A stretch of 59,435 nt of DNA, filler included. It is 6 parts of 6 records of this genome, joined end to end, with 100 filler letters (N's around TTAATTAATTAA, not from the genome) between each part and the next. Parts side by side here need not be neighbours in the genome. Positions count along the whole stretch, not along the records: positions 5,592 to 10,799 come from SRR31147125_11121; 5 more parts are not named here. One strand, given 5' to 3'. The notes beneath the pieces were generated by a model. The model saw only the letters and a list, made by a program, of their open reading frames with translations. It made no database searches and was not told the origin of the DNA. Below, piece after piece: positions 1 to 35,859 of the stretch (position 1 is the first letter of the stretch; every line of letters starts with the position of its first letter). The translations under genes were made by a program, and so were the position numbers.

Positions 1-1842
1 TTTTGACGTCCACGCTTTATCAACATCTTCCCAATTAACGGTCATATCCATGCTCATCATATCTTCTAGGCTCATCATCTGTTGTTGATAAAAAGATATA
101 TACCCTTCTTCTTCCTCATTACGGAATTTTTCATATAGCTTTGGCATCATGCTTTCGTCGTGTTTCTTAAATATTCGTGCAAGTCTATATGCTTGATATG
201 CGTCAACGCCTAAAAGCTGTAATACATCTTGCCCAAGCTCTAATGCCGAACCAAATGTCTCTCCTCTAACACGTTCGATATTAAGTTCCATCAAGTCGTA
301 TGCCGCTAACCTATTAGAAGCATTTACAGCTATCTTCAGATGAGGATAATGCTTTTTAGCAAGCTCAACCAGTTTCCTAGATATCTCTAAATTGCCCATA
401 GTAATAAGCAATACCTCCGCCTCCGATGCTCCTGCAGATTCCAACAAGTCAAGTCTCGTAATATCACCATAATAAACTTCAAAACCAAATCTCCTAAGAA
501 CCTCAACATTTGCAGCATCATTATCTAAAATAACAGGTTTTATACCCGCAGATATCAAAAACCTTCCAATATCGGTACCTAATCTTCCAAAGCCTGCTAA
601 AATTACTTTATGCCCGCTTTGCTCGATCGTATCATCTTCATGCTTAGTCTCTTCTTCAGAATTATCTTTCATCATACTATTCTCATATATCTTAAATAAC
701 AGCGGTGCTAGAAACATAGATACAGCTACAGCAGAAATCATCGGCTCGATAATCGAATTGGGTAATATTCCATCTGTTCTTGCTAGCTGAAACAAAACAA
801 AGGCAAACTCTCCGCCTTGAGCCAGAGCTATTGCAAATAGAGATCTTTGTTTTTTCTTCATTTTAAACAAAAGCCCTGTTACAACTAGAACAAGCCACTT
901 AAATACAATAAGTGTAGCAACCATTAACACAATAAGTCCTATTTTTTCTATTATCAAAGTAAAATTCAAGCTTGCACCAATAGAAATAAAGAATATACCC
1001 AGCAGTAATCCCTTAAATGGCTCCAAGTCAGATTCAAGCTCATGCCGATACTCACTATCCGCTAATACAACGCCAGCCAAAAAAGTACCCAATGCTTGCG
1101 AAAGACCAACTACGGACATAAGCAACGATATTCCCACTACTAACGCTAATGCAGCTGCAACAAAAATCTCTCTAATTCTTGTTTTAGCAATCACTCTAAG
1201 CACTGGTCTGCTTATAAATCTTCCTACAACAAAAACAAGTGTAATAGCTGCAAGAGTTGCAATCATCTGCAAGTATCCTGGAAGTGAAGATATATCAATA
1301 AACGAATGGTCAATATGTTGTTGATGTACTGGTAGCGTAGCTAAAAGTGGCAAAAGAGCCAGCATCGGTATAACTGCTAAATCTTGAAAAAGCAATACCG
1401 AAAACACTGAGCGACCTTGAGGCGTATTCATCAATCCCTTTTCTTTTAACGTCTGTAACACAATAGCAGTAGACGAAAGCGACAAAATTGCGCCCACAGC
1501 AATAGCCTGTTGCCAGGCTAAAAAATTAAGTGCTATCAAACTTATTACCAAGCCAGAAAGAGCCACTTGAACACCGCCCATACCAACTATAGGTGTGCGC
1601 ATCTCCCATAGCATCGAAGGCTTAAGCTCTAATCCCACCAAAAACAACATCATAACAACGCCGAATTCGGTAAAGTGCATAACTTCATCTACATCACCAA
1701 TGAGAGAAAAACCAAAAGGTCCAATAATTATTCCCGCAATCAAATATCCAAGAACCGATCCAAGCCCAAGTTTTTTGGCAAGCGGAACAGCTATTGCCGC
1801 TGCCGCTAAAAATACAAATAATTGTAATAAAAACAGCTCCAA
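1..1842 (-). CDS. kefC: KefB/KefC-type K+/H+ antiporter (CPA2 family with C-terminal KTN domain), 3' end truncated
   Basis: Not in the ORF track because there is no stop in the window. Manual translation from TTG at 1842 gives [42 protein letters not shown], with later [19 protein letters not shown] and KTN AGFGRLG motifs. Lies directly behind kefF. Confidence 0.9.
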
Positions 1843-1843
1843 A

Positions 1844-2452
1844 TCAACCCCTCCTTATCACAGCATCTAAATCACTATTTAAAAACTCAAATTGCTTTGC
1901 TTTTTCTAGATCGATAGTATCATCACGAAGCGCAATAACAGTACGTCTATAACCCTCTGCATGCTCTAAAACCTTATCCTCTTCAAGCCCTCTGTGTACA
2001 CCAAGAACAACAAAAGGAGAAATCCATTCCATGCTACATAATCTACTCATAGCATGATACGGAGAAAGTAGCTCTCCCATATTAAAATTGTTATGCTCTT
2101 CACTTTGATAGTCGTTTTTATCCCCGCCAGCAGTTAGTACCATAAGATATTTTTTACCTTTAAGTGCTTTTCCTTTAGATCCATATGCCCAACCATACTC
2201 TAAAACTAAATCTTCCCATTCCTTTATGATTGCAGGGGTTGAATACCAATAAAATGGATACTGAAAGATAATAACATCATGAGTTTCACATAATTTTTGC
2301 TCTCTTTTACAATCGATTATAAAATCTGGATATTTTGCATATAAGTCGTTATATGTCACACCCTCAAGCCCTTCCACAGCATTTTTAAGTGTAAAATTAA
2401 TCTTAGAATGCGATATTGCTGGGTGTGCAAAGTTTATCAAAATCTTTTTCAT
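1844..2452 (-). CDS. kefF: KefF/KefG flavodoxin-like NAD(P)H oxidoreductase, ancillary subunit
   Basis: [14 protein letters not shown] and GWAYG motifs; 1 nt upstream of the kefC start. Confidence 0.88.
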
Positions 2453-2468
2453 AAAACTGCCCTTCCGT

Positions 2469-2486
2469 TATTGTATATATACAATA
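2469..2486. promoter_or_regulatory. Perfect 18-bp palindrome, candidate repressor operator for kefFC
   Basis: TATTGTATATATACAATA immediately upstream of the kefF RBS. Confidence 0.5.
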
Positions 2487-2967
2487 TTGATTTTCGAATT
2501 ATTATTCATCTTAAATCTATCTAAAAAAGTGACTTGTTATTCATTAGCCAATAAAAAGTATATTATCTCCTATAGTTATAAAAAACACGAGGATAATTCC
2601 TCGCTTAATTTTTATAACTAACGCTTCTTTCAGTTCGATAATTTTCATAAACCAATACCTTCTAATAAAAGCGCTCTACTCTAGATACAACAATATTAGC
2701 AAACCTATATACTTACTTCAAGTTATATTCAAATAAACGTGTCATTATTATATTTTTAACCTTAGTAAATAAAACTATCAGCTCATGTAAATCAGCAAAG
2801 TTTAACTAAATAGTACAACAATATGTTTTTATCAATAGAATTTAAATTGTAATTATGGTAAAATGAGGCTATATTATTATTCAATTCATTCAATTAATAT
2901 TTTGATATATTGATGACATTTTTTTATTAAACACGTTAACGTTTATGTCATTAATAAGGAGTCTTTC

Positions 2968-4028
2968 ATGAAAAAACTAGCAATTGAAGGTATGAAAGTT
3001 TTATCTGTTGATGATAACCAAAACAATTTACTCATGATTGAGATTTTCTCAAAAAAGCTAGGCTTAAATGTGAACAGTTTTACCGAGCCAAAAAAGGCTC
3101 TAGAATCTGCAAAGAACGAGTCGTTCGATATAGTAATCATAGATTACATGATGCCAAAAATGAATGGCATCCAATTTATATCTGAATTCCGCAAACTAGA
3201 TAATGAGGCACCTATTATAATGATATCAGCGATGGGTGAGGATAGTAAGTTACGGCTAAGTGCACTTGAAACTGGCGCTACCGATTTTTTAACCAAGCCT
3301 ATAGATGGAGCTATTTTTAAAGCTAGGGTAAGTAATTTACTACAATTAAAAAATCTCTAGTGTTACTTAAAGATAAATCAGAGTTATTAACTCACGAAAT
3401 TGTACAAGCAACTGAACGAATAAAAGAGCAAGAAAAAGAAGCGCTTAATACCTTGGGTAAGATATCCGAGTTTAGAGACCCAGAGACAAACGAACACGTC
3501 TTAAGAGTTGCAACCTATTCAAAAATCATTGCAAAAACATACGGAATCAGTGAAAAAATGCAGGAAATTATATATAACGCCGCACCATTTCATGATATAG
3601 GAAAGGTAGGAATCCCTGATAAAGTGTTATTAAAATCTGGGAAGTTAGATAGCGATGAATGGTCCGTTATGAGAAACCATTCAAGTATTGGTTATCAACT
3701 ACTTAAAAACTCTCAGAGCCCATACTTACAGGCAGGAGCTGTTATTGCGTACACACATCATGAAAAATTTGATGGAACTGGATACCCAAAAGGCTTGAAA
3801 GGTGAGGAAATATCTATTCTTGGGCGAATTGTAGCTATTGCTGATGTATTTGATGCACTTTGTTCAGAAAGACCCTACAAAGATGCATGGAGTTTTGAGC
3901 AGGCTTTTGATTATATATTAAGTCAAAGCGGAAAGTACTTTGACCCAGATTGCGTAAAAGCTTTTGCTTTAAACAAATCAAAAATAGAAGGAATTTTCCA
4001 TAATAATGAAGTGGACAATCTATCATGA
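2968..4028 (+). CDS. RpfG-like response regulator (REC + HD-GYP c-di-GMP phosphodiesterase), split by a homopolymer frameshift near 3350
   Basis: REC (VDD, IDYMMP, TKP) at 2968-3360; HDIGK and HHEKFDGTGYP at 3360-4028. One extra A in the run near 3350 restores LQLKKSLVLLKDK. Confidence 0.88.
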
Positions 4029-4827
4029 AGAAAAAAATACTCATTACACTACTATGTTTTTCTATATTCTTTAACCTGTCTGCCTGTAAAAAGCAAGAAA
4101 AACCCCAAATGCTTTTTTATATTGGTATTACTATGGTTAAGCCAGTTTATCAGCTTGTAGAAGAATTTGAACAGATACATGACTGTGAAATCAAAATTGT
4201 TCAGGGTGGATCTCAAGATTTGTATAATAGTTTAAAGCAAAGCAACACGGGTGATTTATATTTACCTGGTTCATATTCGTATAGAAAAAACACTTTATCG
4301 GAAGGACTTTTAAGGGATTCTGTACTAGTGGGCTATAACAAAGCTGCTCTTATGGTATCCAATGGGAATCCTCTAGGATTTACAAACGATTTATCACAAC
4401 TTGCTGATACAGCAAATAAAGTAGTCATATGTGATCCTAATAGCGGTAGTATTGGACTCGAAACCAAAAAGGTTTTAACGGCATACGGAATTTATGACGA
4501 TGTTTTTTCCAACGCTATATACCTAACTGCAGATTCAAGAAATCTAACAGATGCAATTGTAAGCGGTAATGCTGATATATGCATAAACTGGTATGCAACA
4601 TCGCTTTGGGAGGAAAATAGCGCCGATATCGATGCTATAATTATCGATGAAATGTATGCTCAAAAAAGATGTTGATTATGAATTTGACAAGCTGTTCAAA
4701 ATATCCAGAATTAGTGAAAGAATTTTTAGCTTATGCATCTTCAGAGCATGGCAAGGAAGTTTTTGCTAAATATGGTTTTATAGACGAGCAAGATCTTGTT
4801 GTAATGGGTGGAGTTGAATACGAATGA
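4025..4827 (+). CDS. ModA-like extracellular solute-binding lipoprotein, frameshift near 4665
   Basis: Lipobox LSAC and GGSQDL / GSIG motifs. Adding one A near 4665 extends the ORF to a TGA at 4825-4827 that overlaps the next ATG. Confidence 0.75.
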
Positions 4828-5491
4828 GAAGAAAAACTGGATATACTAATTTAATTATATTTATTCTTGTTATTGCAATAGGTTTTGGTTCAATCATAGG
4901 AATCCACGAGCTTTTTTCCAGTTTATCGGAGGATTTGGACAACAAGCTTAAAAACAAAGAAATGCAAATTACTATTGGTAGATATATTATCAATCATTTG
5001 CATATTATTGAAAATCAATTTTATCAAGTAGCATTGAACAGAAATTCTGAATACTCTCAAATAGTAAAAAAAGAGATGGAAGCCGAAATAGGACACCTTA
5101 AAAATTCTTTTAGCGTTTTAGAAGACGGTGGTTATATTATTCACCATATTGAGCTAAATGTGGTAAGCACCACAGAGTATGAGGAAAAGCTTTATTATGA
5201 ACCAGCTGACCCAATATATCATAATGTTGAATCCATCGATTTGAATCCAAAATTAGATCAAACAATTGATAAATTAGACGGTTTGATTTCATTGATAGAA
5301 GATTACGAATATATTGTTGAGAACGGGGATACTGATGACAAAATAGCGTTTGAGAAGGAATTTTCTAATTATATGAAGTATATTCCTCCGTACTTTGTTA
5401 GAATGAAAGAAAATGCCAGCAGAATTATTTATGAAAGTAAAATAGAAGCCGATGAATACAGACAAAATATTTTAAGACAAAAAAAACTTTT
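4824..5491 (+). CDS. Membrane sensor protein N-terminus (probable histidine kinase), truncated by contig end
   Basis: N-terminal TM helix then a helical extracytoplasmic region, in operon with a response regulator. The kinase domain itself is not visible. Confidence 0.5.
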
Positions 5492-5591
5492 NNNNNNNNN
5501 NNNNNNNNNNNNNNNNNNNNNNNNNNNNNNNNNNNTTAATTAATTAANNNNNNNNNNNNNNNNNNNNNNNNNNNNNNNNNNNNNNNNNNNN
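5492..5591. other. Artificial contig linker
   Basis: N44-TTAATTAATTAA-N44, which puts stops in all six frames. Confidence 0.99.
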
Positions 5592-5593
5592 GG

Positions 5594-5986
5594 AAGCATA
5601 ATGATAGGGATTTGGAAATATACAAGTTAGCATCAAAGAAAATGCTTGAAGGAAAGCGAATGAAGTATACAGATGTACCAAGTAAGCTACAAACACATAA
5701 GAATTTGAAAAGTTTTCTAGATCGATTTAAAGTTGTAGATGGAAATGATATATCTCATACTATGGTAGCTCATATTTCTAAAGACGGGCATCATTATATT
5801 CATCCGGATATAAATCAAAATAGATCGATAACTGTAAGAGAAGCGGCAAGAATTCAAAGTTTCCCAGATGATTACTATTTTGAGAATAGTAGGACATCTG
5901 CATTTATACAAATAGGAAATGCTGTTCCACCATTAATGGCAGAAAAAATAGCTAGGAAAATAAAAGAACAAGTAAAAAACCAGTAG
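5594..5986 (+). CDS. DNA (cytosine-5)-methyltransferase, C-terminal part
   Basis: Motifs IX/X: RSITVREAARIQSFPDDY...QIGNAVPP. 5' truncated by the contig start. Confidence 0.93.
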   Translation, partial: KHNDRDLEIYKLASKKMLEGKRMKYTDVPSKLQTHKNLKSFLDRFKVVDGNDISHTMVAHISKDGHHYIHPDINQNRSITVREAARIQSFPDDYYFENSRTSAFIQIGNAVPPLMAEKIARKIKEQVKNQ

Positions 5987-6007
5987 CTGAAGGCTACTGG
6001 TTTTTTT
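5974..6007. terminator. Bidirectional rho-independent terminator
   Basis: AAAAAACCAGTAGC-TGAAG-GCTACTGGTTTTTTT between convergent genes. Confidence 0.85.
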
Positions 6008-6010
6008 GTA

Positions 6011-7628
6011 TTAAAGATTCAATATTCCAGGTCTTGTTATGTGATGAGTTAATTGGGCTTGTAAATCTAAAACAAGTTGTTTTCTGAAAGTATATAGATA
6101 AGTTGTTGCGTTCATTAGCTCTTTATTAAAACTATCATGAAATTCTGAGTGCATGTACTTAGGGTTGAAGAAAATATTATAATTTTCACCTTTATAATTA
6201 TAAGTCGGTGTAGAGTATTTAAATTCGTTTTTTAAGGATTTCAAAAGAACGTTGTTATAATATTTTATTTTTAATCCATAAAGAAACTTATGAAATACTT
6301 TTTTATTTTGAGCGTAATCACATGATGGAGAAATTTCAACCAGAACTAAATCAATATAATCAGTTAGGTTAAATTTTATTTTATTATAAAGTAATTCTTC
6401 CTTAATATTTTTAATATAATATTGTTCCGCAATTAAATTGACTGCTTTTTCCTTATCAAAGTCTTGAATTTTATTTTTTCTCTTATTATATTCTTTCAAC
6501 ATTTCGGAGGTTGATTTACCAGTAGGCTTAAGAAATGTTGGTTGAAAACAAGGGTTACTAGCAATTAATTCTATCTTAAAGTCAGTTATTTTTAAATGCA
6601 AATTATTTAGTATGTTAATACTTAGATTTAAATCAGTAGGAATTAATTTAGCAACCTCAGATTTGAAAACTTTAATAAGCACTTCATTTTCCTTCATAAT
6701 TTCAGGGAATATTGCTTTTTTCCAAAATCTCAGAGAGCTCTTTGCATTCTCTAATATATTCAGTTTTTAAACTTAAGTTGTTATTTAAATGAACACTTCC
6801 TGGAAAGGTAAAATCTTTTCTAGGTTTTCCAATTAAGAGAGCTGAATTAATTTTTGCTTTTTGATCAATTGAAATATCATGGTCACATAAATCAAAAACA
6901 GGAATATCAATGGATTTATTTAAGTTTGTTTCAATTTCATCAATAAGTAAAGAATTAAAAACAGTTAATCCTTCTTTAATTTGATTTTCTTTTGGAAGCT
7001 TATTAAAAGTTTTACCTGCTGAAGCTTTTCCCATATTAACTATTAAACTTTGAATTTCTTTGTTCCATTCTTTTACATTAACCATTTCATTTATCGTTTC
7101 AAATACAGATTCAACTCCAGATAAAACTTTATTTCTCCAATTGTTTAGTATAGGAATACCTGGATAGTCTAAATCAGATAAAGAATTTTTTAACTCAGCC
7201 TCTATCAATGCAATAGTCTCTTCATCCGATTTTTTCAATTCAAATTTATCTCCATCTGATTCAAAATAATCAAATTTATCTAATGTAGCAGTTATTAGAG
7301 GAAATAGGTTAAAAAGTGTTAAACCTTTTAATACCTCTTCGACCTGATTCTTGTTTTTAGTCCAAAAAATTAAAATATAAGGAGTGTTTTTTTTTAATAG
7401 TCTTTTTAAATATCCAACCAACGTAGATATTGTCATTTCATTAATTACTCCCCCTTCAGTTAAATCTATATCCGAAAAAATTAATGTATAACTTTCTAAT
7501 TTTTCTTCAATACTTTTGTCAAAATCTCCATCAAAATATCTTATTGAAGAATTTAAGTTTGATAATAACTTTATCAAGGGTAAGACTTCATCAACTTTAT
7601 CATCAATTATTGCAACATTCTTAAGCAT
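6011..7628 (-). CDS. Receiver-domain protein with a long uncharacterised C-terminal region (ORFs 6702-7628 and 6011-6697, probably one gene)
   Basis: REC residues IIDD, FSDIDL, FWT and LDK. The downstream frame is open back to an A-run near 6765. C-terminal part has EISPSCDYAQNK...HHITRPG. Confidence 0.75.
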
Positions 7629-9774
7629 TTATTCTTCTTCCTCCTCCTTCTTAAAAGCAAGTCCTACAGCTGCTCCAGTTGAAAAATTTTCAGGAATAGT
7701 AACTAGACTTCTAATATCATCAATTATTAATTTACCATTATTTTTATTTAATATCTCATTGACTATGTATAGACCTAAGCCTGCGCCTTCATTAAAAGGT
7801 CTTGTAGTTACAAAAATTGTTTTGCTTCTTTTTCTGAAATAGTAAATCCTGGACCATTATCTAAAATAATTACAGTTAAATAACCTTTGATTTCATTTGT
7901 AATAAAAAGTTTAATTTTTTTATTTTCATTTCTTGAATATTTTAGCCAAGCGACTGAATTGTCAAGGATATTGATAATTATATTTCGAAGTTGTTTTTGA
8001 GGGAAAATTATTTTTTTCCTTCCAGTTCGTTATAGTCAATTTCTAAAGTTATATTATGCCTAAGTGTCCTCAATTCATTCATATCAAGTATGTTCTTTAA
8101 AGTGCTTTTTAAAGCAATATTTTTTGAGTTCCCTTTCTTTAATAAACTACCATATAAAGCTAAAGAGCCTGAAAGAGATTTAACAATTTTTTCGATTTCA
8201 GAGAAATCTTTTTTAGATTGCACAGCTAATTCTAGTGTTCTAAAAGATTTTTCAATTTCGTGTACATATATGGATAAGTTTATTCCACTACTTGATGATT
8301 CAAGTAATGTAGCTTCAGTAGCCTTAAATTCCTTTTCTATAATTTTGTATTCAGTTTCAATTTGATTTATGTAATTATCCATTTTATCTTTATCTTTAGG
8401 AGTTATATTTACATCATTAACTATTTCTTTTAATTGTTCAATATTATTACTGATAGAATTTCTTTCAATACTACCAGTATTAAGAATAGCTTTAAGATTT
8501 CCTTTATCAATATACCGATATTGTTCTACTTTAGTTATAAAATATAAAACAGCTTCAGAAAAAGCAAAAAATGCTTCATTTTCTATAAAACCTTCTCTGT
8601 TTGTTTTTTCTTTTAGATCTTGGCTATTATTTCTATCAAGATTAACCATACTAAGGACAATATTATTACTAACACGCTTAGCGGGCATATTAACTCTGTT
8701 TAAATCTTTTCCTAACCAGTCATTTCCAGGTTCTCCATAATCATAAATTCTCATATTATCTCTATAGACTTTAAATCCGCCATTAGTATTTAAATATTCT
8801 TTAAAACCTTTTTTATCTGTTTCAATGAAGTTCATTAATGCAGTATCTCTGTCAAATATATATCCTTCTATGGTAATTTTACCAATTTTATGTTTTGATA
8901 AATTAATAGTTTTCTTTCCATGTTCATATACCATTTTAGAAGTTACAAGATCCTTTAACTGAATTATTTTTGAATCAATTCTATGAGAAAAATCATCCCA
9001 AGGTTTAAATTCATAATAAAAATCAGTTATTTCATCTCCTTCAATAGCTCCTTTAAAATAGAAAAGACTACGCTTTATTATTGTATCGAATTTAATCATA
9101 TTATCTAGCCAATTTTTATTATTTATATTAAAATCAAAAGAAAAATTATTGATTTTATTAAATGGACTTGAAAGTGAATTTATAGAGTGATAAACTTCCG
9201 TAACATTTTTTTTATTCCAAACAGTTCTAAGTTTCTTTATTGTTATTTGTGTTCCTGTTTCACCTTTAAATACTTTCGGTTCTCTTTCGAAAACTGTTAT
9301 AGGAACATCATTTAAATAATTAGCAGTTTCAAATTTCTTCCAATCAATTTTTATAACTATCTCTTTTTTATTATCCATTTTAGAGATTAATTCAATTTCA
9401 TCTCCCAATTTATGTACGCCTAATCTTCCAATTCCCTTTTCTCCAAGCGGTAACCTTTTGTATTTAGGAGTATGTTCTTCATTTTCAAATTTTTTCTTTT
9501 TAAAATCACTTCCCAATTCAAGCCAAACATTTTCAATAATGTTTAAGTCCATACCACAGCCGTTATCTTTAATAATTATTTCAGGTTCATCAAAGAGTCC
9601 TATTTTTTTATCATCCTCTTCTATATTTAACATATTTATAGAAACATAACTTGCGTCTGCATCATAAGAATTTTTAATTAATTCTGTTAATGCGATTGTT
9701 CCATTTTTTATTAGTTGATCCCCTAATTGAAGTAATAATCGTGCCCTTGGTTTAAATACAAACTTATTTTCCAT
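7629..9774 (-). CDS. MORC/HSP90-like GHKL ATPase fused to a histidine kinase; frameshifts near 8015 and 7815
   Basis: N-terminal ELIKNSYDADA, DNGCGM, GEKGIGRLG, GTQITI; H-box YVHEIEK. Rejoined C-terminus reads NILDNSVAW, DNGPGF, FVTTR, GAGLGL and ends at TAA 7629-7631, abutting the next ATG. Confidence 0.88.
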
Positions 9775-9895
9775 AGTATTCCTTTCTAAAAAAATTGTTT
9801 CAACATGTTTTTCATATTATACAATGAATAAATAGAAAAATAAACAAAAATTAATATATTAGACAGTATTTATTTTAAATAGGTAACAAAAAAAC

Positions 9896-9938
9896 TTGAC
9901 TTGTTCGTACTAACGGGTTATAATTATGTTAGTACGAA
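9896..9938 (+). promoter_or_regulatory. Sigma70 promoter with an 11-bp inverted-repeat operator
   Basis: TTGACT (9896-9901), 17 bp, TATAAT (9919-9924). TTCGTACTAAC (9904-9914) and GTTAGTACGAA (9928-9938) flank the -10 box. Confidence 0.8.
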
Positions 9939-9951
9939 TTGAAGGTGAGCT

Positions 9952-10124
9952 ATGGAAAAAAGAGATGGCAAAATTTCTTTTCACAAAGCTGGTAATGGTA
10001 TTGGAGCTAAACTAACACTATCTGTTCCTTTGCTAAAAAAATGGGAATTACTTCTGAAAATAAAGAGGTAGAGATCATTTATGATGAGGAAAAAGAGAAA
10101 ATTACCGTTTTGAAAAAGAAATAA
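9952..10124 (+). CDS. Small AbrB/MazE/SpoVT-like DNA-binding protein (about 57 aa), frameshift in the A-run near 10040
   Basis: RBS GAAGGTGA. Rejoined: MEKRDGKISFHKAGNGIGAKLTLSVPLLKKMGITSENKEVEIIYDEEKEKITVLKKK, a swapped-hairpin-like pattern. Confidence 0.65.
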
Positions 10125-10307
10125 GAAAAGCCCCCATACTCCCTTTAGGTGTACAGAGGCAAGCGTTGTAAAATAACAACACTGTCGCGAGTGTATTTTA
10201 CCACGCTTCCTCTAAAAAACAATAAACAGACCTTATAAAAATGAAACAAAAGTCCTCTCCTAAATTAGGAGAGGATTTAGGTGAGGTCTAAAAAAGGAGG
10301 AATGCAA

Positions 10308-10799
10308 ATGTTTCAAACAAAAGAAACAACAAATGGCAGAATGCTATCATCAAAAGAGCTACATGAATATCTAGAGATAGGTAGAGTTTTCAACTCTTGG
10401 ATAAGAGGGAGAATTGAGAAATATGGTTTCGTGCAGGGTGTTGATTACCAAGAAGTTTGGCTTGATAATCAAACTGGTGAAATACTTGAAACAGAAGACA
10501 GGCAAAGCAAAATAGCAAATAGTACTTATCAAAAGGATTATTATATCACTATCAATATGGCAAAGGAGTTGTCTATTATTGAAAATAGTGAAAAGGGTCT
10601 ACTAGCTAGAAATTATCTAGTGATGAGACAAAAGACCTATTTGAACTTGCTTAAGGCAAAACTTCATTTGCTGGATGAGGGAAAAATTGATAAAGAAAAA
10701 TTAGCAGAATGGCAGATGTTAATTGATATGGTGAAGGATTTAAGTCCTACACTACTTAAATTCAAGAAGCAGATGCTTAACATGATATGGCAGGCGAAT
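10308..10799 (+). CDS. Phage antirepressor, AntA/AntB family, truncated by contig end
   Basis: SKELHEYLEI...FNSWIRGRIEKYGF...DYYITINMAKELS; AGGAGG RBS at 10295-10300 (start 10302 or 10308). Confidence 0.85.
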
Positions 10800-10899
10800 N
10801 NNNNNNNNNNNNNNNNNNNNNNNNNNNNNNNNNNNNNNNNNNNTTAATTAATTAANNNNNNNNNNNNNNNNNNNNNNNNNNNNNNNNNNNNNNNNNNNN
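10800..10899. other. Artificial contig linker
   Basis: N44-TTAATTAATTAA-N44. Confidence 0.99.
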
Positions 10900-18666: not shown

Positions 18667-18766
18667 NNNNNNNNNNNNNNNNNNNNNNNNNNNNNNNNNN
18701 NNNNNNNNNNTTAATTAATTAANNNNNNNNNNNNNNNNNNNNNNNNNNNNNNNNNNNNNNNNNNNN
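18667..18766. other. Artificial contig linker
   Basis: N44-TTAATTAATTAA-N44. Confidence 0.99.
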
Positions 18767-29024: not shown

Positions 29025-29124
29025 NNNNNNNNNNNNNNNNNNNNNNNNNNNNNNNNNNNNNNNNNNNNTTAATTAATTAANNNNNNNNNNNNNNNNNNNN
29101 NNNNNNNNNNNNNNNNNNNNNNNN
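29025..29124. other. Artificial contig linker
   Basis: N44-TTAATTAATTAA-N44. Confidence 0.99.
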
Positions 29125-35759: not shown

Positions 35760-35859
35760 NNNNNNNNNNNNNNNNNNNNNNNNNNNNNNNNNNNNNNNNN
35801 NNNTTAATTAATTAANNNNNNNNNNNNNNNNNNNNNNNNNNNNNNNNNNNNNNNNNNNN
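35760..35859. other. Artificial contig linker
   Basis: N44-TTAATTAATTAA-N44. Confidence 0.99.

Follow-up and report, generated by a model that had tools for sequence, protein, structure and literature searches.

A methylase-linked histidine kinase-like protein and a receiver partner with a predicted toxin fold: a candidate two-component defence or addiction cassette

Here we describe a gene set on one contig of a 59,435-base stretch of DNA (the window). It consists of the end of a C5 cytosine DNA methyltransferase (MTase) gene, a gene for a kinase-like protein with two GHKL-type ATP-binding domains, and a gene for a receiver protein whose C-terminal domain is predicted to adopt the CcdB/MazF toxin fold. 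Methylase, ATPase-histidine kinase and receiver-toxin together probably constitute a methylation-linked defence or addiction switch. On balance, we lean towards the reading that a cytoplasmic kinase switches the fused toxin by His-to-Asp phosphotransfer while the methylase marks self, in a defence or addiction module that resembles a restriction–modification (R-M) system. The window copy is an ordinary and intact member of a widespread and already described kind, and the architecture itself is not new. New here are the toxin fold predicted for the output domain and the exchange of this domain with other effectors.

In such a module, the kinase-like protein would respond to some cytoplasmic signal related to DNA or to its cytosine-methylation state, would autophosphorylate on the histidine of its H-box, and would pass the phosphate to the receiver aspartate of its partner. 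Phosphorylation of the receiver would turn the fused toxin-fold domain on; the opposite polarity might also apply, with the toxin being released when a constant phosphorylation is lost. The toxin would then arrest the cell, most likely as an RNase in the manner of MazF, Kid and ToxN; a gyrase poison such as CcdB is the less likely alternative. The linked methylase would mark self, and the "R" arm would be a signalling-controlled toxin rather than a DNase. A bolder version, which we put forward only tentatively, is R-M-like immunity without a restriction nuclease. Here the GHKL-kinase would monitor DNA, or the state of the linked methylase, and fire the receiver-fused toxin by His-to-Asp phosphotransfer, the effector being exchangeable, and self/non-self discrimination based on methylation would be coupled to abortive infection.

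The kinase-like protein and its receiver partner

The kinase-like gene encodes two GHKL domains, as the initial annotation had proposed. The N-terminal one is of the HATPase_c_3 type and carries the motifs E31-N35-D38, D70-G72-G74, G111-EKGIG-R117 and G174-T175; the strings ELIKNSYDA, DNGCG and GEKGIG are present, and the motifs are invariant among relatives. The C-terminal one is a kinase-type HATPase_c (CA) domain with N, G1 and G2 boxes, which scores just under the cut-off in the downstream frame (E 4.9e-5, 24.2 bits against 26.4) because a frameshift cuts it. The columns of these boxes are invariant or nearly so in the 25 relatives of alignment A1 and the 48 of alignment A4, and both domain types occur together in 25/25 aligned relatives and in nearly all of the 120 listed matches. 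The H-box is the dipeptide His505-Glu506, and its histidine, the predicted phosphate acceptor of the DHp helix, is found in every aligned relative (25/25 in A1; 48/48 in A4, as H497). When the family profile was compared with solved histidine kinases, it matched them across DHp and CA (LvrB, E 3.7e-11; HK853, about 9e-9), with the family histidine aligned to their H-box. No transmembrane segment was found in the protein (maximum Kyte-Doolittle mean over 19 residues, 1.26 or less), and the stop codon at 7629-7631 abuts the ATG of the receiver reading frame orf308 at 7628. The His-Glu H-box, the missing membrane anchor and the abutting genes had all been read correctly from the sequence alone.

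The region between the two catalytic parts (residues about 160-440) carries strongly conserved motifs, for which Pfam scans gave no named match and an ESM Atlas search returned only unnamed clusters. The first 200 or so residues match the NCBIfam model NF050001 (BbrUII/HgiDII) at 89-95 bits against a cut-off of 550 (E 1e-25 to 5e-27; window protein E 9.7e-26, 90.5 bits), over profile positions 10-202 of 659 and thus over the GHKL part only. The PADLOC matches of the protein are likewise confined to REase_II models, through their N-termini and the GHKL domain. The N-terminal domain had been called MORC/HSP90-like, and the motifs quoted for this are present, but MORC is not specifically supported. 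The domain is nearer to HtpG/GRP94 (E 5e-4 to 1e-3) than to MORC2/3 (E about 7e-3, motif I only, profile positions 28-75), and its similarity to a prokaryotic MORC-like protein (locus L007) covers positions 31-139 and ends after the Bergerat core. A specific MORC assignment was rejected on these grounds.

The partner family was built from the genes next to kinase loci, because a word-indexed search with orf308 gave only two matches; the resulting alignment, A2, holds 58 sequences. In relatives the partner is a single protein of about 410-470 amino acids (aa). For structure prediction we used the closest full-length relative (locus L053, 426 aa, 24-29% identical to the window pieces), since the window gene is split in the assembly. 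Its model has a predicted local distance difference test (pLDDT) of 92.0 and a predicted template modelling score (pTM) of 0.86. Residues 1-160 form a receiver (REC) fold matching CheY (6tg7_A, Z 10.0, root-mean-square deviation (rmsd) 3.2, 126/130 residues aligned), and the top Foldseek matches of the protein are response regulators (PorX, FixJ and PmrA receivers). All 58 rows of A2 have the acceptor aspartate (column D57), and 54-56 of them have the lysine, the Trp-Thr/Ser pair and the acidic residue that comes first (D13, W93 and K125 in 56 each). D13, W93 and K125 stand directly after strands 1, 4 and 5, and the active-site residues as a whole follow L053 strands E9-12, E53-56, E89-94 and E119-124. 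An intact DD/D/T/K receiver without a helix-turn-helix domain had been expected, and both points hold: all these residues could be mapped in the window, and no helix-turn-helix was found in the partner protein.

At the sequence level the partner is elusive. Pfam Response_reg matches just two of the 58 partners (best E 0.019), Pfam at E ≤0.1 gave only chance-level matches over the 58, and no model in Pfam, NCBIfam or PADLOC 2.0.0 matches the window protein. Identity across the A2 rows is 17-37%, L049 excepted (58%), while the catalytic-looking residues are kept. A helical region (L053 residues 143-270) lies between the receiver and the C-terminal domain, and the high pTM of the full model suggests a fixed, possibly auto-inhibited, arrangement of the three parts.

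The C-terminal domain of L053 (the last 145 residues or so) was also folded alone, with a pLDDT of 91.8. A fold search against 48,161 chains returned nothing but CcdB, MazF, Kid and type III toxins in its top 15 rows (Z 8.9-3.7). Below them the score drops to Z 3.3 with an unrelated chain, and no more than 12 chains reach Z 5. The matches include MazF (4mzm_A, Z 8.9, rmsd 3.6, 110/115 aligned), MazF-mt3 (Z 8.8), CcdB (1vub_A, Z 8.3, 95/95 aligned), Kid (Z 7.6), CptN (Z 6.3), and ToxN and AbiQ (Z 3.7-4.5). Foldseek placed CcdB (E 5e-3) and MazF-mt1 first, both with probability 1.00. The model thus points to a CcdB/MazF toxin fold, an assignment that is new here. The initial proposal of a defence or abortive infection system controlled by a phosphorelay would fit such a toxin-type fold at the end of the partner.

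As predicted, the fold shared with CcdB, MazF, Kid (PemK), ToxN, AbiQ and CptN covers nearly the whole toxin chain. The family departs from CcdB, MazF and Kid in lacking any match to them in sequence and in conserving other residues. Rather than standing beside an antitoxin gene, the domain follows a receiver and a helical domain in one polypeptide. Invariant in it are a Cys-Asp that directly follows strand 2 and belongs to the motif E-x-[ST/A]-P-x-C-D-x-A-Q-x-K, and an Arg-x-Gly immediately behind the last helix. The window protein keeps the family-invariant residues (N261 and G277 in orf308; E121, P124, C126, D127, Q130, K132, H219, R222 and G224 in orf228), and it is 539 aa long because of an insertion of about 110 residues between strands 1 and 2 of this domain. 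A profile of the domain matched 1770 cluster representatives (50% identity) at E ≤1e-3 among 1.84 billion. Among the top 150 of them the domain is C-terminal and most proteins have 400-560 aa, the shorter ones looking like fragments. An ESM Atlas search with the kinase middle region and this domain gave PF19192 as the nearest named cluster, on 13% of its members with a score of 0.78, which we treat as a lead only.

The initial annotation had corrected two frameshifts in the kinase gene and had described a receiver protein after it. We compared the contig with run X1, one public DNA run from 2020 that contains 94% of the sampled words of the stretch. An X1 contig (7038 bases, depth 26.8) spans positions 5592-10799 with 0 substitutions in 5208 bases and seven indels, all in homopolymers: a loss of two bases at 6001 and gains of AA behind 6723, T behind 7819, T behind 8010 and, in the right part, A behind 10034, A behind 10213 and AA behind 10247. 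Four of the seven fall in non-coding homopolymers, and three restore reading frames. With the X1 homopolymer lengths there is a single kinase-like open reading frame (ORF) of 715 aa, covering positions 1-698 of 699 of profile A1, and a single partner ORF of 539 aa, covering positions 8-421 of 422 of profile A2. Both profiles include window fragments, so it is the coverage that counts here and not the score. In relatives, too, one protein matches both orf308 (over its first 300 residues) and orf228 (over its last 110).

All three frameshifts are assembly errors in homopolymers, and the kinase and partner genes are intact. The two expected frameshifts are present at 8010 and 7819, but a third one at 6723, in the receiver gene, had been missed; the receiver is real, but orf308 and orf228 are one gene that this third frameshift splits. 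Run X1 may come from the same strain or sample, and serves as a technical control rather than an independent biological one. Even so, the absence of substitutions, the four extra non-coding indels and the three restored frames leave little room for real pseudogenes. A decayed remnant, that is, a pseudogenised relic with real frameshifts beside a prophage fragment, would agree with three frame changes in 3.8 kb as assembled and with the truncated MTase and AntA genes. However, X1 has one or two extra bases at exactly the frameshift homopolymers, the restored ORFs align with the family over their full length, every family-invariant residue being kept, and the truncations are contig ends (with the caveat on the origin of X1), and we regard decay as practically excluded. 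False frameshifts are probably numerous throughout the assembly, particularly where it is AT-rich.

Linkage, spread and effector exchange of the cassette

The kinase-like family comprises proteins of about 700 aa, with 5775 of 8000 scored candidates at E ≤1e-3. It has at least 577 relatives in a collection of contigs with one genome per species, where 577 of 605 pattern matches encode a kinase relative. The loci examined here are the best 80 of these matches. By local profiles, the partner gene abuts the kinase gene in 66 of the 74 loci whose downstream flank is 1.4 kb or longer; 61/75 loci have a C5 MTase within 4 kb, and in 43/75 one abuts upstream on the same strand. Of the 55 loci whose flanks are long, the MTase is present in 49, the partner in 50 and a Vsr gene, within 4 kb, in 26. 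Co-occurrence with MTase and Vsr, a check that the initial annotation had suggested, is evident in these counts (61/75 and 26/55).

The flanking ORFs were also scanned with Pfam. Upstream, DNA_methylase was found in 28 of 39 ORFs (39 of 55 candidates, the other 16 having already matched the window MTase fragment by tblastn), and the remaining families include EcoRII, HpaII and MvaI/BcnI restriction endonucleases (REases) and AIPR. Downstream, 37 ORFs (of 46 candidates, nine short or cut ones being dropped) gave 17 Vsr, four HhH-GPD glycosylases and two HNH_2. SIR2-TPR is also among the neighbours of the cassette. The cassette is conserved across phyla, in the order C5 methylase, GHKL-DHp-CA protein and REC-effector, often then Vsr. 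The layout seen in the window, with the MTase convergent and downstream, recurs in L077 and on the Campylobacter plasmid pCA639-1.

In four loci (L005, L016, L049 and L053) the HhH-GPD glycosylase follows the partner in the place of Vsr, which suggests an alternative repair partner for 5-methylcytosine deamination. In two others (L007:11427-15733 and L047:11925-16234), the cassette is directly followed by a HATPase_c_3 protein of 489 aa, confirmed by Pfam in L007 and matched in length by an ORF in L047, and by a Z1-domain protein of about 946 aa. These genes are a prokaryotic MORC/Z1-type pair, and two GHKL systems stand beside the same methylase. An archaeal metagenome-assembled genome labelled Cenarchaeum (L012) has two kinase-like matches (1617-3857 and 7977-9628) and two partner-like matches (324-1106 and 6502-7386), the partner gene apparently lying ahead of the kinase gene.

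The cassette is horizontally mobile. A quick maximum-likelihood tree of 48 kinases is at odds with taxonomy, and on it the MTase-cluster labels change 16 times (minimum 5; mean of shuffled labels 22.2; none of 200 shuffles as low). A full-length kinase homologue occurs on 10 plasmid records, and 43 Campylobacter plasmid records match the kinase query, the listed ones over just about 60% of it. The conjugative plasmid pCA639-1 of Campylobacter armoricus (L085, NZ_CP044261.1 2220-11473) has an annotated sensor histidine kinase, response regulator and DNA cytosine methyltransferase. Its 340-aa regulator matches Pfam Response_reg below the cut-off (E 2.8e-5) and shares the barrel domain with the partner family (hhalign probability 93.9, E 1.5e-7). 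On the Rhizobium plasmid pRspBT03a the neighbours of the pair are dcm, vsr, a type II REase gene and an HNH gene. Phage records gave three matches among 50,697, one of them covering at least 80% of the query; in the phage collection searched, the cassette is not typically phage-borne. The pCA639-1 cassette adjoins a gene for a P-loop NTPase fold and a RepL and PIN-domain pair.

Where the standard partner is missing, the gene after the kinase still starts with the receiver of the family (E 1e-10 to 6e-36). For example, L031 (10109-10861) and L039 (10156-10905) encode proteins of about 250 aa in which the receiver is followed by a weak HEPN-like tail (Pfam HEPN_Swt1 1.3e-3 and DUF4145 2e-3; PADLOC CARF_HEPN 2e-4 and 1.6e-3; all below cut-offs). 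L042 (10199-11896) has a receiver-only protein followed by a protein of the metallo-beta-lactamase (MBL) fold that matches the PADLOC models LmuA (1e-15), PDC-M48B and DRT-associated MBL, and L044 (10051-13422) has a receiver followed by an HsdR-like helicase-nuclease. In some relatives, then, HEPN-like or LmuA-like MBL effectors replace the output domain, which is also new here. Such modularity of the output is known from defence systems like Detocs.

Relation to known systems and alternative readings

The cassette corresponds to a predicted "TCS-like" (two-component system-like) pair linked to R-M systems (Bellieny-Rabelo, Pretorius and Moleleki 2021, Genome Biol Evol; PMC8011034). In that bioinformatic account, which reports no experiments, an "HK-like" protein with HATPase_c_3 and HATPase_c is linked in 91.6% to an "RR-like" protein that has receiver residues and no other known domain, and no fold is given for the C-terminus of the latter. 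A C5 methylase lies upstream and Vsr downstream, with HNH_2, EcoRII and MvaI/BcnI nearby; the pair is linked to paraMORCs and suggested to regulate R-M systems. The window pair shares with it the soluble HATPase_c_3 protein with a His-Glu H-box and HATPase_c, the adjacent receiver protein and the linkage to C5 MTase and Vsr. In the window, the MTase fragment is convergent and downstream, and Vsr is not on the contig. The F. columnare context given there is the chromosomal context of locus L065, whose proteins stand in our family alignments, so the gene sets of that study include the window lineage. The link was made through this context; in the supplement, none of six strain names from the examined loci was found. 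The predicted toxin fold turns the vague "TCS-like" label into a testable mechanism with a kinase histidine, a receiver aspartate and a separable toxin domain.

The two Pfam models of that study do not detect the window lineage. Response_reg_2 (PF19192) matches 0/58 partners at E ≤0.1 and HEF_HK (PF19191) one of 25 kinase relatives (E 0.089). In the five genomes that contain examined loci, PF19192 gave no match at the partner genes and none above the cut-off (0/5), with one sub-threshold match on another contig (1/5 genomes; E 0.013, 17.5 bits). By sequence comparison, the window lineage is a shorter sister form outside the coverage of PF19191/PF19192. True PF19192 proteins were found in two of 300 scored genomes of the class searched from genome G003 (L082 in G112 and L083 in G023). 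The partners of this long form are longer, with 555-617 aa, and have a receiver-like N-terminus, an SPaCD-like motif and a C-terminal ..SRVGL. Their kinases match the window family significantly over DHp-CA (9e-21 and 7.5e-14), and the partners gave no significant match to profiles A2 and A3 by hhalign and hmmsearch (E 0.03-0.04, collinear motifs only). The proposed kinship of the short and long partner forms thus draws on collinear motifs and the significant kinase match only.

The kinase-like protein has been met before from the side of restriction. The putative REBASE enzyme R.EcoUTORF4938P is listed among putative REases (Orlowski and Bujnicki 2008; PMC2441816), where the accessible text gives it a GHKL domain, a middle part without assignment and a histidine-kinase-like C-terminus with N, D, F and G motifs, an architecture identical to that of the window protein. 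The restriction enzymes BbrUII and HgiDII also have an N-terminal GHKL domain next to a C5 methylase, according to the descriptions available, whereas the window protein matches their model over about 200 residues only and the C-terminal part of HgiDII is a different domain without assignment. MORC and paraMORC proteins, a GHKL domain with an S5 domain, are likewise GHKL ATPases encoded with cytosine methylases, Vsr and HNH endonucleases (Iyer, Abhiman and Aravind 2008; PMC2292703), and the window protein differs in that its similarity is confined to the Bergerat core. In that paper, "receiver" does not occur, "histidine kinase" occurs twice, only in spelling out the GHKL acronym, and no kinase fusion is mentioned. 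The initial annotation had named no worked-out mechanism for the architecture and had treated it as potentially novel. The claim to novelty is weakened, since the cassette is in PMC8011034 and the kinase in PMC2441816, but the statement on mechanism holds within the literature searched. In that search, with subscription journals and bioRxiv supplements outside it, we found nothing on a receiver-MazF/CcdB fusion, a toxin fold of the partner or experiments with the cassette.

The closest functional parallel is Detocs, an abortive infection system of a kinase and a receiver-effector that needs both the histidine and the aspartate (Rousset et al., bioRxiv 10.1101/2023.01.24.525353). In the accessible text of that preprint, Detocs, like the window cassette as predicted, combines a cytoplasmic sensor kinase with a response regulator in which a cell-killing effector replaces the DNA-binding output, and the effector is exchangeable. 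Detocs differs in having three genes, for a TPR-kinase (DtcA), a stand-alone receiver "buffer" (DtcB) and a receiver-effector (DtcC); neither a stand-alone receiver gene nor TPR was found on the window contig or in the typical cassette. TPR repeats take the place of GHKL in the Detocs kinase, the main Detocs effector is a PNP ATP nucleosidase, and linkage to a methylase is not described for Detocs in the text available. The window cassette is therefore a Detocs analogue, not a member. The family is large, mobile and located where C5 R-M systems keep their nuclease. The toxin fold predicted for its output domain, and the exchange of this domain, make it a well-defined candidate for a methylation-linked defensive two-component system. 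If this is true, it would be the second defensive two-component family after Detocs and a far more widespread one (at least 577 species genomes), and it would explain many "orphan" C5 MTase-Vsr loci.

Several points weigh against a phosphotransfer-controlled toxin. The predicted fold comes from a model of a relative at low identity to the window pieces, and Z 8-9 is just above the level that the search tool calls common. No toxin model in Pfam, NCBIfam or PADLOC matches the C-terminal domain (58 partners for Pfam), and no antitoxin gene is evident. To our knowledge, the invariant Cys-Asp and Arg-x-Gly are not the catalytic residues of MazF/Kid. The loci examined, being the best matches, are not a random sample. 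In L037, L073, L078 and pRspBT03a, a complete R-M system with its own REase stands beside the pair, so that the pair is not the only restriction arm there. Close kinases (L074/L078 and L008/L052) adjoin different C5 MTase clusters, which makes a motif-specific reader of methylation unlikely. A reader that co-evolves with its motif is likewise weakened by the 16 cluster changes on the kinase tree, and the MORC clamp reading DNA methylation, as initially proposed, is not supported, given this mixing and a similarity that stops at the Bergerat core. The mixing leaves room for sensing 5-methylcytosine status generally, the methylase itself, or a phage product.

Among the alternatives, addiction without phage defence would mean that loss of methylation or of the cassette releases the toxin and kills the segregant, which would stabilise the methylase-bearing mobile element. 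R-M and toxin–antitoxin systems act in this way in post-segregational killing. The predicted effector fold of toxin–antitoxin type, the conjugative plasmids and horizontal transfer, the tight linkage to the MTase, often without a REase, and the rarity in phage records all agree with this, but the swaps to LmuA-like MBL and HEPN-like effectors and the AIPR and SIR2-TPR neighbours are typical of anti-phage loci. We consider pure addiction unlikely, although addiction and defence are not mutually exclusive and nothing here separates them. A little less likely still is an ATP-dependent restriction enzyme, in line with the REBASE listing, in which the GHKL protein would be the R subunit of a type II-like system, as in BbrUII/HgiDII, a nuclease would be hidden in the middle region or the partner, and the kinase and receiver domains would be ATP-driven modules for conformational change or assembly without phosphotransfer. 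The pair does fill the REase slot between C5 MTase and Vsr, the N-terminal 200 residues match NF050001 and PADLOC REase_II, R.EcoUTORF4938P has the same architecture, and the conserved middle region would offer a place for the nuclease. However, the NF050001 match of about 90 bits is far from its cut-off of 550 and touches the GHKL part only, and no nuclease family in Pfam, NCBIfam or PADLOC matched either protein. Moreover, the predicted partner fold is one known from RNases and a gyrase poison, not from DNases, and the His, Asp, Mg-binding, Thr and Lys residues are conserved across phyla, which is hard to explain without phosphotransfer.

The pair might also be a regulatory two-component system without toxicity, as proposed in the Discussion of PMC8011034, that controls the expression or activity of the neighbouring R-M and repair genes (MTase, Vsr and HhH-GPD), for instance upon nucleotide levels or damage from 5-methylcytosine deamination. 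The consistent linkage to Vsr (17/37 downstream ORFs scanned) and HhH-GPD (4/37) is what this would lead one to expect. On the other hand, the partner has no DNA-binding output and is modelled as REC, helices and a CcdB/MazF-type barrel, HEPN-like and MBL-nuclease-like modules replace its outputs in relatives, and it evolves fast while its catalytic-looking residues are kept. We rate regulation as improbable, below both addiction and restriction, and a kinase-switched toxin next to a self-marking methylase is the reading that we prefer.

Contig layout and coordinates

The window is not one piece of chromosome; its six draft contigs have been joined artificially, with the six-frame stop linker TTAATTAATTAA between paired runs of 44 N (five pairs; Table 1). 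The kinase and receiver genes sit on the 5208-base draft contig at 5592-10799 (SRR31147125_11121), and since linkers flank it on both sides (5492-5591 and 10800-10899), neighbourhoods across these points are artificial. Genes left of 5492 (REC, HD-GYP, solute-binding and sensor) were considered as part of the system and rejected, as they belong to a different contig. Such linker-joined draft contigs, together with homopolymer errors, can mimic pseudogenes and false neighbourhoods in annotation.

The MTase neighbour that had been proposed is a real C5 enzyme and convergent with the partner gene, but only its C-terminal part is present. The fragment comprises the last 125 or so of about 410 aa because the contig end cuts the gene. 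It matches Pfam DNA_methylase (E 1.4e-16, profile positions 253-323 of 324), is called DrmMII/MTase_II by PADLOC, and aligns with residues about 283-408 of MTases of about 410 aa at 52-67% identity, the homology beginning at the contig edge (5594/5597). Neither the rest of the methylase gene nor a Vsr gene was found elsewhere on the contig or in the whole stretch. The X1 contig reaches 1824 bases past the left contig end, which is room enough for the missing part. As initially noted, a hairpin with T-runs on both sides lies between the two convergent genes as a terminator-like element, and an AntA-type phage antirepressor gene adjoins the pair, separated from the kinase gene by a spacer of 506 bases.

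Table 1. Positions of the features discussed, counted along the 59,435-base window
Feature	Position	Strand	Remarks
GHKL-DHp-CA "HK-like" gene	7629..9774	-	Three frames: 8008-9774 (588-aa ORF), ~7811-8020, ~7632-7820
N-terminal GHKL (HATPase_c_3) ATP-binding domain	9304..9696	-	Pfam HATPase_c_3, residues 27-157, E 4e-16
H-box His505-Glu506, predicted phospho-accepting His of DHp helix	8257..8262	-	Invariant in A1 and A4
CA (HATPase_c) domain with N, G1 and G2 boxes	7632..8000	-	Two downstream frames, broken by two homopolymer errors
Partner gene (REC, helical linker and predicted CcdB/MazF-fold domain)	6011..7628	-	Split into orf308 (6702-7628) and orf228 (6011-6697)
Receiver (REC) domain	7149..7628	-	D9/D10, acceptor D53 (codon 7470-7472), W89-T90, K118
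CcdB/MazF-fold domain (predicted)	6011..6850	-	First strand (…FPGSVHL) at the end of orf308, rest in orf228
First kinase-gene frameshift, 7-base homopolymer	8011..8017		Assembly 1 base short; X1 comparison
Second kinase-gene frameshift, 4-base homopolymer	7820..7823		Assembly 1 base short; X1 comparison
Third frameshift, homopolymer, splits partner gene	6724..6727		Assembly 2 bases short; X1 comparison
C5 cytosine DNA methyltransferase, C-terminal ~125 residues	5594..5986 (ORF 5612-5986)	+	Convergent with partner gene
Hairpin, T-runs on both sides, bidirectional terminator-like	5974..6006		Between convergent methylase and partner genes; two bases shorter at 6001 in X1
AntA/AntB-type antirepressor gene	10281..10799	+	Pfam AntA, E 2.9e-20; divergent from kinase gene; cut by right contig end
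Contig-joining linkers	5492-5591, 10800-10899, 18667-18766, 29025-29124, 35760-35859		N44-TTAATTAATTAA-N44

The final 44 bases of the contig (10756-10799) recur on several other X1 contigs, and the contig end seems to lie in a repeat inside the AntA-type gene. On the adjacent contig, at 2968-5491, a sensor-like ORF reaching into the linker accompanies genes for a Response_reg protein (Pfam 2e-25), a solute-binding protein and an HD_5 protein of the HD-GYP type; this signalling cluster is ordinary and unrelated to the cassette.

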